DNA from: Candidatus Methanophagaceae archaeon | GTDB lineage: Archaea > Halobacteriota > Syntropharchaeia > Alkanophagales > Methanospirareceae | DNA: 32,000 bases | Assembly (NCBI GenBank): GCA_003194425.1 | Contig: PQXB01000001.1 | Location: 730,444-762,443, forward strand | Direction of reading: 5' to 3' | Part shown: positions 21,185 through 25,927 of the stretch, piece by piece | Position numbering within the stretch: the stretch's first letter is position 1 | How the letters are laid out: every line of letters begins with the position of its first letter | Program-made: the position numbers and the translations under genes | The notes under the pieces: model-generated | The model's database searches: none | Seen by the model: only the letters and a program-made list of their open reading frames with translations | What the model was told of the DNA's origin: nothing

Positions 21185-23503
<2,319 letters not shown>

Positions 23504-23624: not shown

Positions 23625-23697
23625 GCCCGGGTGGTGTAGAGGCCTATCATTGAGCCCTGTCGAGGCTCGGACTCGGGTTCAAATCCCGACCTGGGCG
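23625..23697 (+). tRNA. tRNA-Asp (anticodon GUC)
   Basis: GCCCGGGTGGTGTAGAGGCCTATCATTGAGCCCTGTCGAGGCTCGGACTCGGGTTCAAATCCCGACCTGGGCG. Acceptor GCCCGGG/CCTGGGC with one G-U pair, anticodon stem GAGCC/GGCTC with loop CTGTCGA, and T arm TCGGG-TTCAAAT-CCCGA. No intron and no CCA. Confidence 0.9.
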
Positions 23698-23810
23698 CTG
23701 AACCTTCCTTCTTTCCCTTCCCCCCTTTCCTTTTTCTTCCCTCCTTTCTCTTCTCCGTTCGCTCACGTCCCTGACAGAGTCGGAAGGAAATAATAAGAAA
23801 AGAAAAATTC

Positions 23811-23825
23811 CGTTAAATTTATATA
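23811..23825 (+). promoter_or_regulatory. BRE/TATA promoter of gar1 (leaderless spacing)
   Basis: cgttaaa-tttatata, with the TATA ending 25 nt upstream of ATG 23850. Confidence 0.5.
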
Positions 23826-23849: not shown

Positions 23850-24251
23850 ATGAAAAGAAAAGTTAGCGCACAATGTCAGGGGAACGCTAAACAGGGCGTT
23901 AAACAGGGCGTTAAACAGGGCGTTAAACAGGGCGTTAAGCAGGGGGCGAAGAGAGAAAAGCGGCAGGGGGAACTGGTAGAACTGGGCACCGTGCTTCACT
24001 TCGTAGACCGGAAATTGATCGTGCGGGGAAGTAGGAGACAGGGAAGCAAGACACGGGGAAAAGTAAGAGTGGAGCGAATCTTGAACGCAAGAGTTTTGGC
24101 AAGAGGCGTAACAGCGGAGAAGAAGAAAATTGGCAGAGTTCACGATATTTTCGGACCCGTAGACCACCCGTACTTCGCTGTAAAGAAATTTGCGGCGGTA
24201 AAAGAGGAAGAGCTGAGAGGGGTTGTCGGTAAGAAAATATTTGCTCTCTGA
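23850..24251 (+). CDS. gar1: H/ACA RNP component Gar1 with N-terminal basic repeat extension
   Basis: 133-aa ORF. The core LGTVLHFVDRKLIVRG...KIGRVHDIFGPVDHPYFAVK matches archaeal Gar1. About 45 N-terminal residues, including (KQGV)5, are extra. Confidence 0.75.
   Translation: MKRKVSAQCQGNAKQGVKQGVKQGVKQGVKQGAKREKRQGELVELGTVLHFVDRKLIVRGSRRQGSKTRGKVRVERILNARVLARGVTAEKKKIGRVHDIFGPVDHPYFAVKKFAAVKEEELRGVVGKKIFAL
23889..23948. repeat. 5 x 12-nt in-frame repeat (aaacagggcgtt; KQGV)
   Basis: Four identical units at 23889, 23901, 23913 and 23925, plus a degenerate unit at 23937. Confidence 0.9.
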
Positions 24252-24280
24252 AGTCTCGGAGCGAGCGTAGGAGTAAAAAA

Positions 24281-25018
24281 ATGTGCGGAAACGAAGAAGA
24301 AAAAGAAGCAGTAGAAAAAAGGGAAAAAGAAGAAGAGACCGGGGAAGAGGGGTCTGGGGAAGAAGGGTCTTTGGACAATAACCGGGATCTTTTACGCAGG
24401 CTCAGCAAGAGCCAAAAAAGAAAAAGACTAACCGCAGCAGTTAAGAAACAGCATTTAACGGCGCAATCCGAGATTGAGAAGTTGTCTGCGGCGCTTTCTT
24501 TGCCTGACGAAACGAAAGAGTGCAGCAAGGACCTGTACTGTGAGGCGTGGGAAAATAACCTGATTCACGGTCGCTCGATTGAGAAGATTCTGGCTGCCTC
24601 GCTGTACTTAGCCTGCCGTAAATCCCACGTGCCGAGAACGCTTAACGAGGTAGAAACCGCAACGAAAGTGAGGAAGAAAGACATTGCAAAGACTTGCAAG
24701 GTCTTGGCGAGCAGGCTGAAAATGCAGCTCGCTCTCACCTCGGGCTTGGACTACGTGGACAGGTTTTGCGACAAACTGGGTCTGAGGGGAGAAGTAGAAG
24801 AACGGGCGAGAGAAATAATAAAAAAGGCAGAAGAGAAGAACATTACGAGCGGTAGAGGTCCAACCGGCGTTGCAGCGTCCGCGATTTACATTGCCTCGGT
24901 GCAGTGCGGCAACCGGCGAACGCAGAAAAATATTGCCGAGGCGACGGGCGTTACTGAAGTGACTCTGCGGGTGCGGTACAAAGAGTTGTCGCGGGAACTG
25001 GGAATAAAAGTAGAGTAG
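24281..25018 (+). CDS. TFB (TFIIB) homologue consisting of the two-cyclin-fold core only; no Zn-ribbon, B-reader or B-linker
   Basis: 245-aa ORF. LIHGRSIEKILAASLYLACRKSHVPRTLNEV (cyclin 1), ITSGRGPTGVAASAIYIASV...RTQKNIAEATGVTEVTLRVRYKEL (cyclin 2). The N-terminus is 36 aa of acidic low complexity. An in-frame TAA lies at 24230-24232 inside gar1. Confidence 0.85.
   Translation: MCGNEEEKEAVEKREKEEETGEEGSGEEGSLDNNRDLLRRLSKSQKRKRLTAAVKKQHLTAQSEIEKLSAALSLPDETKECSKDLYCEAWENNLIHGRSIEKILAASLYLACRKSHVPRTLNEVETATKVRKKDIAKTCKVLASRLKMQLALTSGLDYVDRFCDKLGLRGEVEERAREIIKKAEEKNITSGRGPTGVAASAIYIASVQCGNRRTQKNIAEATGVTEVTLRVRYKELSRELGIKVE
24341..24370. repeat. 2 x 15-nt in-frame repeat (ggggaagaggggtct / ggggaagaagggtct; GEEGS)
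   Basis: Copies at 24341 and 24356. Confidence 0.85.
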
Positions 25019-25058
25019 AGAGAGGAGCAACGAGAGGGGTGAAGGGAGGAGGAGAGGA

Positions 25059-25829
25059 GTGAAGGGAGGAAGCGGGGAATTTGAGGTAGTTCCTGCGGTG
25101 GACCTTAGGGGGGGTAAGTGCGTTCAACTGCGGCAGGGAAGAAAAGAAGAAGTGATTTTTTCGTCCGCTGAAAGCCCTGTGGAGATCGCGAGGCACTGGG
25201 TCGAGCAGGGAGCGAGCAGGCTGCACATAATTGATCTTGACGGCGCGTTTCAAGAGACGAAGAACAATTCCGCAGTCGTTAAAAAAATAGCCGAGTCGGT
25301 AGGAGTGAGCGGAGTGAGCGGAGTGAGCGGAGTGAGAGGGCGAGCGAAAATTCAAGTGGGCGGCGGAATTCGGTCTTACGAGCGGGCGGTTGAACTTCTA
25401 GCTCTGCCTGGCGTTGAGCGGATAATTTTTGGAACTGCGGCGTTGAAGTCCCCGCGGCTTGTCGAGCGGGTGGCGAGAGAGTTCGGCTCTGAACGCGTGA
25501 TGGTTGCGTTGGACGTGCGGGGCGGGAAAGTGGCGGTAGACGGCTGGCGGGAGACGACCGGGTTGGACGCGAAGGAAGCCGCGAAGCAGGCAGAGGAGCT
25601 AGGTGCGGGCAGTCTGCTCTTCACGAACATTGATGTCGAGGGCTTGATGCAAGGCGTAGAAACAGAGGTTGTAGCGGAGTTCGTGCGTTCCGCGGGCGTT
25701 CCTGTGGTCGTGGCAGGAGGAGTGAGCAGCGCGGAAGATGTGGAGCGGGTAAGAGAGGCGGGAGCAAGCGGAGTGGTGGTCGGGAGCGCGTTGTACACTG
25801 GCAAACTTTCTTTGGAAAATAAAGTTTGA
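25059..25829 (+). CDS. hisA: ProFAR isomerase (histidine biosynthesis HisA)
   Basis: 256-aa ORF with a GTG start. VVPAVDLRGGKCVQLRQG, HIIDLDGAF, QVGGGIR, DGW, and a C-terminal VVAGGVSS...GVVVGSALY (beta/alpha-barrel phosphate sites). Confidence 0.85.
   Translation: MKGGSGEFEVVPAVDLRGGKCVQLRQGRKEEVIFSSAESPVEIARHWVEQGASRLHIIDLDGAFQETKNNSAVVKKIAESVGVSGVSGVSGVRGRAKIQVGGGIRSYERAVELLALPGVERIIFGTAALKSPRLVERVAREFGSERVMVALDVRGGKVAVDGWRETTGLDAKEAAKQAEELGAGSLLFTNIDVEGLMQGVETEVVAEFVRSAGVPVVVAGGVSSAEDVERVREAGASGVVVGSALYTGKLSLENKV
25302..25337. repeat. 4 x 9-nt in-frame repeat (ggagtgagc; GVS)
   Basis: Units at 25302, 25311 and 25320 are identical; the unit at 25329 is ggagtgaga. Confidence 0.9.
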
Positions 25830-25854: not shown

Positions 25855-25927
25855 CGCCGCCGACAGGACTCGAACCTGTGACAAGCCGGTTAACAGCCGG
25901 GCACTCTACCAACTGAGTTACGGCGGC
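25855..25927 (-). tRNA. tRNA-Asn (anticodon GUU)
   Basis: Minus strand GCCGCCGTAACTCAGTTGGTAGAGTGCCCGGCTGTTAACCGGCTTGTCACAGGTTCGAGTCCTGTCGGCGGCG. Perfect 7-bp acceptor, D stem ACTC/GAGT, anticodon loop CTGTTAA on a CCGG/CCGG stem with a C27-C43 mismatch, and T arm ACAGG-TTCGAGT-CCTGT. Confidence 0.85.

Follow-up and report, generated by a model that had tools for sequence, protein, structure and literature searches.

The window, a 32,000-nucleotide stretch of a Candidatus Methanophagaceae genome, contains directly downstream of gar1 an open reading frame of 245 codons encoding a homologue of TFB, the factor that, like TFIIB, bridges promoter and polymerase (Table 1). The frame begins at the first ATG past an in-frame TAA (24230-24232), which shuts it 16 codons upstream, and the stop codon of gar1 (24249-24251) leaves a gap of 29 nt before this ATG. 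With the frame closed by the TAA and gar1 ending at 24251, no frameshifted ribbon fragment lies upstream, as the original prediction had stated. gar1 is present in a single copy (one match in a genome search). Purine-rich, Shine-Dalgarno-like sequences (GGAG/AGGGA) precede the first ATG of short-TFB orthologues, as GGAG does here. Because the spacing is so short and the adjacency of the two genes invariant, they are probably co-transcribed. A-rich stretches within the 3' end of gar1 may hold an internal promoter and are indistinguishable from coding constraint.

The product has the domains of a TFB core. Pfam recognizes PF00382 (TFIIB repeat) alone, in two stretches (E 2.2e-44), and residues 33-244 align with positions 99-310 of the 312-position NCBIfam profile NF001658, leaving positions 1-98 unmatched and the score, at 255.4 bits, below the curated cut-off of 384. 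The Zn-ribbon is absent from the open reading frame, with neither a PF08271 match nor a CxxC pair; the GPEWR motif is likewise absent from it, and alignment with full-length relatives finds the B-reader and the B-linker strand missing. The claim of a TFB core without ribbon or B-reader at this locus was thus borne out.

Table 1 Features of the gar1-tfb locus (positions in the window).
Feature	Position	Strand	Remarks
TATA-like box (tttatata), candidate gar1-tfb operon promoter	23818..23825	+	About 28 nt 5' of the gar1 ATG; putative, from the sequence
gar1	23850..24251	+	H/ACA RNP component, 133 aa; PF04410 at 38 bits, above cut-off
GGAG, Shine-Dalgarno-like	24270..24273	+	7 nt 5' of the ATG, within the gar1-tfb spacer; read from the sequence
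Core-only TFB paralogue, 245 aa	24281..25018	+	Pfam, NF001658, orthologues, dN/dS
Disordered acidic head, residues 1-33	24281..24379	+	pLDDT <50; not conserved
B-linker-helix homologue, residues 34-49	24380..24427	+	Alignment with full-length relatives, conservation; predicted helical
Cyclin repeat 1, residues ~56-150	24446..24730	+	Pfam, alignment, predicted model; clade-specific changes
Cyclin repeat 2, residues 151-238	24731..24994	+	Pfam best stretch 151-238; holds the conserved TSGRGPTG loop, predicted TBP-stirrup contact
HTH recognition helix (TEVTLRVRYKE)	24953..24985	+	BRE-reading helix in canonical TFB; Ile->Leu at 229, Asn->Val at 231

Tandem repeats and tRNA genes mark the neighbouring DNA. 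A tRNA-Asp gene (plus strand, 23625-23698) lies between gar1 and the aEF-2 gene (minus strand, 21185-23503), which carries an in-frame Gly-Glu-Ala/Thr repeat insertion at 22800-22935. gar1 itself has an N-terminal (KQGV)n extension encoded by a 12-nt tandem repeat (x4.8, 23888-23944); orthologous gar1 genes measure about 90-105 aa in the stop-to-stop frame and are without this extension. Past the short TFB, a 20-nt tandem duplication (GAGAGGAGTGAAGGGAGGAG x2, 25032-25070) spans the spacer and the start region of a hisA-like gene (25059-25829), doubling the Shine-Dalgarno-like sequence and start context of that gene, and a tRNA-Asn gene (minus strand, 25855-25927) stands just past hisA.

Initiation factors encoded in the genome

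The assembly (1.40 Mb in 5 contigs, 92% complete) holds one TBP gene and three TFB genes, namely the short one and two full-length ones (349 aa, C1:810433-811482; 300 aa, contig 3). Both full-length proteins have the CxxC...CxxC ribbon and GPEWRAY. Neither gene adjoins the single-copy gar1, so the conserved position is not occupied by a full-length TFB, a possibility that the original prediction had allowed for. Rewired initiation, one of the two meanings that the prediction had attached to the missing domains, is unlikely because two canonical full-length TFBs are present. The 349-aa protein has a low-complexity N-terminal extension of about 55 residues (KEGG/RKEG repeats) ahead of its Zn-ribbon.

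A search of the same 92%-complete genome found no stand-alone gene for a TFB-type ribbon or B-reader: PF08271 rose above its cut-off only in the two full-length TFBs, the weak PF08271 matches that we examined were ribosomal protein eS27 and a multihaem cytochrome, and a query made of the N-terminal 116 residues of a full-length TFB matched only the two full-length genes. We accordingly rejected a split TFB whose ribbon and B-reader are encoded by a separate gene, an absence that falls short of proof at this completeness.

Conservation and selection

In a first sample, all 18 same-family genomes had an orthologue, 52-66% identical and with stop-to-stop frames of 223-259 aa. Of 65 other family genomes, 59 carry the short gene, as do all 23 genomes of the order with a completeness of 90% or more; the six family genomes that gave no match are 51-87% complete. 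An intact short open reading frame is shared by about 60 independent assemblies from 14 genera, with 52-71% identity across the family. Of the 18 family loci fetched, 17 have gar1 immediately upstream of the short gene, and the remaining locus spans only 1,458 bases. In the protein database, about 78 clusters at 90% identity hold proteins of 194-257 aa with PF00382 alone. Those clusters that bear a source name all come from Methanophagales/ANME-1, and one is named "transcription initiation factor IIB, C-terminal sequence". A similarity search of genome contigs for related loci returned only distant Bathyarchaeota/Nitrososphaera TFBs.

Pairwise dN/dS of the short TFB ranges from 0.035 to 0.24; for the same pairs of genomes, the full-length paralogues give 0.037-0.11. 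Because about 60 assemblies share the short gene and its dN/dS is this low, artefact and pseudogene can be ruled out; by these comparisons the gene is under purifying selection. The assembly deletion that the original prediction had feared is thereby answered as well.

One short-TFB orthologue (G038:C146:725-1408, from an 82%-complete family genome) contains an in-frame TAG, for which sequencing error or local loss is possible. Two further ribbon-less TFB-like proteins, P0109 (260 aa) and P0085 (242 aa), show 49-50% identity; P0109 starts just ahead of the B-linker strand (TIHDKGLST) and is thus differently truncated, and it may come from another lineage.

Origin of the truncation

To place the short gene among its relatives, we compared gar1 loci across the class and built a maximum-likelihood tree from the core domain (60 sequences over 210 columns; LG+C20+F+G4 with PMSF). 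Both loci from a second family of the order (L050, L051) have next after gar1 a short TFB truncated at the same boundary; in two other families of the class (L047-L049, L036, L042), the TFB that comes after gar1 is full length and has both ribbon and GPEWR. In the tree, the 18 family short genes form a clade (100/100), which together with the short genes of the second family forms another (100/98). This short clade is nested in turn within a larger one (100/96) that also takes in the full-length, gar1-linked TFBs from the sister families, and the full-length TFBs of the order make up the other half of the tree. Synteny, nesting in the tree and the single copy of gar1 therefore place the short TFB in the orthologous group of the gar1-linked, ancestral TFB; the original suggestion of an orthologous gar1-tfb locus holds.

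The short genes are one clade within the gar1-linked TFBs, whose members in sister orders are full length, and the simplest reading is therefore a single event, at the root of Methanophagales (ANME-1), that removed the head of the ancestral copy next to gar1. In a quick tree the stem leading to the short genes is long, with branches of 0.38 and 0.66 changes per site, and branches inside their clade are short.

The retained linker helix and the acidic head

In P. furiosus TFB1, the B-reader consists of a helix (40-47), a loop (48-58) and a strand (59-64), and the B-linker of a strand (71-76) and a helix (84-98) (PMC13502027). The conserved part of the short TFB starts at the segment that matches nRAQLYRLRKWQRR of full-length relatives, and alignment with these relatives makes residues 34-49 (the DLLRRLSKSQKRK region) homologous to the B-linker helix. 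The B-linker loss asserted in the original prediction therefore applies to the strand, which is missing, but not to the helix, which alignment and conservation indicate has been retained. Within the short clade the helix has the consensus DRERLxRLSExQRRK, with conservation of 1.00 at L38, 0.95 at R35 and 0.92 at both L41 and Q45. Other residues stand in place of the RK pair and of the Trp found without exception in full-length linker helices.

The crystallized TFBc (PDB 1AIS/1D3U) begins about 20 residues after the start of the linker-helix segment, so the core fold does not need the helix. Its retention therefore hints at contact with a partner, which a pure decoy would not need, and the conserved linker helix is the observation that a simple decoy model explains least well.

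Ahead of the helix, the protein of the source genome has a head of 33 residues with a net charge of -10, a length and acidity confined to this genome; part of its coding DNA (24293-24370) is a (GAA)n run and a 15-nt tandem repeat. In orthologues the head is unconserved, with a median length of 20 residues and a net charge of -1. We considered the acidic head as a conserved functional module and rejected it, given that orthologue heads are shorter, nearly neutral and unconserved and that tandem repeats inflate the head of the source genome.

Clade-specific substitutions in the core

Comparison of the short family clade (18 orthologues) with 26 full-length relatives uncovered changes at positions that are invariant in all 26: R96H, G102K, E134D, R137K, R140K, F141L/V, E145R, S164A, I229L and N231V. 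The stretch 134-145 is the helix of repeat 1 in which the counterpart of Pfu F192 lies; Pfu F192 forms cross-links with promoter DNA a short way downstream of the TATA box (PMC13502027). In the recognition helix, TEVTLRVRYKE stands in place of TEVTIRNRYKE: residue 229 is I in 26/26 full-length relatives and L in 18/18 short orthologues, and residue 231 is N in 26/26 and V in 16/18. The R->K replacements preserve basic charge. The pattern suggests DNA contacts that are altered rather than abolished; because the DNA-proximal helix of repeat 1 and one residue of the BRE helix have changed, the protein may bind promoters differently or may have ceased to bind them.

In the second family (L050/L051), cyclin repeat 1 of the short TFBs is lengthened by an insert of about 12 residues (KKQVKNKRAILETKVE), and both the canonical RNRYKE recognition helix and the linker-helix Trp are retained; after their shared truncation the two families thus took different courses.

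Predicted structure and TBP complex

An AF2 model of the short TFB (mean pLDDT 84) has helices at 27-71 followed by two five-helix repeats. It superposes on P. woesei TFBc from the TBP/BRE/TATA complex (1D3U_B) with a target-normalized TM score of 0.91, an rmsd of 1.4 Å and 43% identity. The predicted complex with the genome's own TBP scored 0.73, compared with 0.00 for the best of three controls; among complexes of solved structure 58 of 80 attain the pass mark, as do 2 of 110 mismatched pairs. TBP and TFB being a textbook pair, resemblance to 1AIS/1D3U may account for the pass. At least 83% of contacts are common to the runs, and partner pLDDT is at least 84. The predicted interface sets the C-terminal stirrup of TBP (110-134, 149-150) against TFB residues 110, 120-152 (scattered), 187 and 190-195, which is the canonical arrangement of the stirrup against the end of repeat 1 and the TSGRGPTG loop. 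We take the modelled pass as likeness to solved complexes and not as proof of binding by the short TFB.

Discussion

Like canonical TFB (P. furiosus TFB1; P. woesei TFBc), the short TFB has a pair of cyclin repeats, the HTH helix, the predicted stirrup interface and the gar1-tfb locus, and it is 43-44% identical to TFBc; it differs in being without the Zn-ribbon, the helix, loop and strand of the B-reader, the B-linker strand and the linker-helix Trp. Truncated TFB cores serve in the laboratory as non-recruiting variants, and such N-terminal deletions of TFB/TFIIB (TFBc) have essentially the same domain content. Unlike them, the short TFB is natural, is selected across an archaeal order, and has an extra conserved linker-helix segment and substitutions of its own. 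Sulfolobus TFB3 is the reciprocal truncation, in which the ribbon end is kept and the cyclin core is missing, whereas the ANME-1 protein has the core and not the ribbon. The likeness to TFB3 is that of a truncated paralogue that is no substitute for canonical TFB and acts as a regulator (PMC7289017); reviews name both TFB3 and Pfu TFB2 as atypical paralogues (PMC7289017, PMC13502027).

Sulfolobus TFB2, encoded in a gar1-tfb2 operon, offers another parallel as a gar1-linked, presumably ancestral copy that is fast-evolving and specialized while its duplicate keeps the basal role. A September 2026 preprint takes the gar1-linked TFB2 as ancestral and TFB1 as having kept basal transcription, and describes TFB2 as bound at the promoters of cell-division genes, whose cyclic transcription it drives (bioRxiv 10.64898/2026.09.06.749720). 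The ANME-1 protein has lost its N-terminal domain, however, and activation cannot be assumed for it.

In TFB, the C-terminal domain is responsible for TBP binding and promoter recognition, and ribbon and linker are needed for RNA polymerase (RNAP) binding (PMC3025549); B-reader mutations and B-linker mutations disrupt promoter opening (PMC13502027). We put somewhat better than even chances on the short gene being a functional core-only descendant of the gar1-linked TFB that acts as a non-productive occupant of TBP and promoter, as a regulator or competitor. Some 85-100 codons (Zn-ribbon, B-reader and B-linker strand) would have been lost at the base of Methanophagales, followed by a burst of change and then purifying selection, with basal initiation carried by the paralogous full-length TFB lineage, represented by two genes in the source genome. 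Having kept the double cyclin fold, the stirrup loop and a slightly altered BRE helix, the protein would still assemble on TBP-bound promoters; without a ribbon it would not dock RNAP and without a reader it would not place the template strand, and the resulting complex would be non-productive. It would compete with the full-length TFBs for some or all promoters, or serve as a promoter-class-specific damper if its changed DNA contacts give selectivity, and its dosage would track the gar1 (ribosome-biogenesis) operon if the two genes are co-transcribed. Competitive regulation, the other meaning originally proposed, is still the best reading; in it we infer TBP and DNA binding in vivo, the failure of RNAP recruitment and the sign of the regulatory effect alike.

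A more specific form of this proposal is tentative, and we think it somewhat doubtful. Here the ancestral basal TFB of all ANME-1 would have become a natural anti-TFB, a recruitment-dead promoter and TBP occupant with a re-tuned BRE helix, whose linker helix touches the RNAP clamp or another partner and whose co-transcription with gar1 couples global or promoter-class-specific transcription capacity to ribosome biogenesis.

Several other readings draw on the same observations. The short TFB may instead be a positive helper that stabilizes or bookmarks TBP on promoters, or a subset of them, before giving way to a full-length TFB or working with one in trans; this would mirror Sulfolobus TFB3, a coreless activator together with TFB1. 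The TBP interface is intact by prediction, the universality of the gene in the family fits a benefit in routine growth, and TFB paralogues need not behave canonically, TFB3 activating in trans (PMC7289017); yet short and full-length TFB share the stirrup surface of TBP in the model, which makes simultaneous binding to one TBP unlikely, and a hand-over mechanism for TFB is not known. We consider such a helper unlikely. It is quite unlikely, too, that the protein is still an initiation factor which reaches RNAP by placing its linker helix on the clamp coiled-coil, by way of TFE or with a ribbon lent by an unrecognized partner, and which serves a specialized regulon through its altered BRE helix: a search of the 92%-complete genome yielded no separate gene for a TFB-type ribbon or B-reader, the linker helix has lost the Trp that full-length TFBs invariably carry, and every system tested has required ribbon and linker for RNAP binding (PMC3025549). 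What speaks for an initiation factor is the strong conservation of a helix that the core fold does not need, the fixed N->V change in the recognition helix and the precedent of the gar1-linked Sulfolobus TFB2, which became a specialized activator (bioRxiv 10.64898/2026.09.06.749720).

A role outside initiation, as a cyclin-fold scaffold with the Gar1/H-ACA RNP or in ribosome biogenesis, or by sequestering TBP off DNA, would suit the invariant gar1 adjacency, the long stem branch and the several changes on the DNA-facing helix of repeat 1. The gar1-tfb synteny is ancestral, though, and holds for ordinary full-length TFBs too (bioRxiv 10.64898/2026.09.06.749720), so alone it implies no shared function, and the HTH helix and basic residues are largely kept (R->K); we judge this role improbable. 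Hardly credible is a degenerate pseudogene or assembly deletion, for which the profile score below the NCBIfam cut-off (255 versus 384 bits) and the TAG in one orthologue (G038) could be cited: the same intact frame recurs across assemblies and genera, dN/dS is low, identity is held across the family, and a Shine-Dalgarno-like motif precedes the start codons.

Within the literature searched, we found neither an ANME-1 TFB described nor a core-only TFB that is natural, cellular and spread across an order. What is new is that the truncated gene is the ancestral gar1-linked TFB copy and a universal core gene of ANME-1. For annotation, short genes labelled "transcription initiation factor IIB" or "hypothetical protein" are not to be counted as functional basal TFBs. 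If the short TFB is indeed a natural anti-TFB, a disabled general factor would be exerting global control, a mode of regulation that has yet to be reported from cellular archaea. A laboratory-type truncation has been fixed and selected in a whole, globally important order of methane-oxidizing archaea, and it hits the ancestral gar1-linked copy, not a spare duplicate. The order thereby offers a natural test case for the conversion of general factors to regulators, in parallel with Sulfolobus TFB2/TFB3 and TFS4, and for what the B-linker helix does alone.
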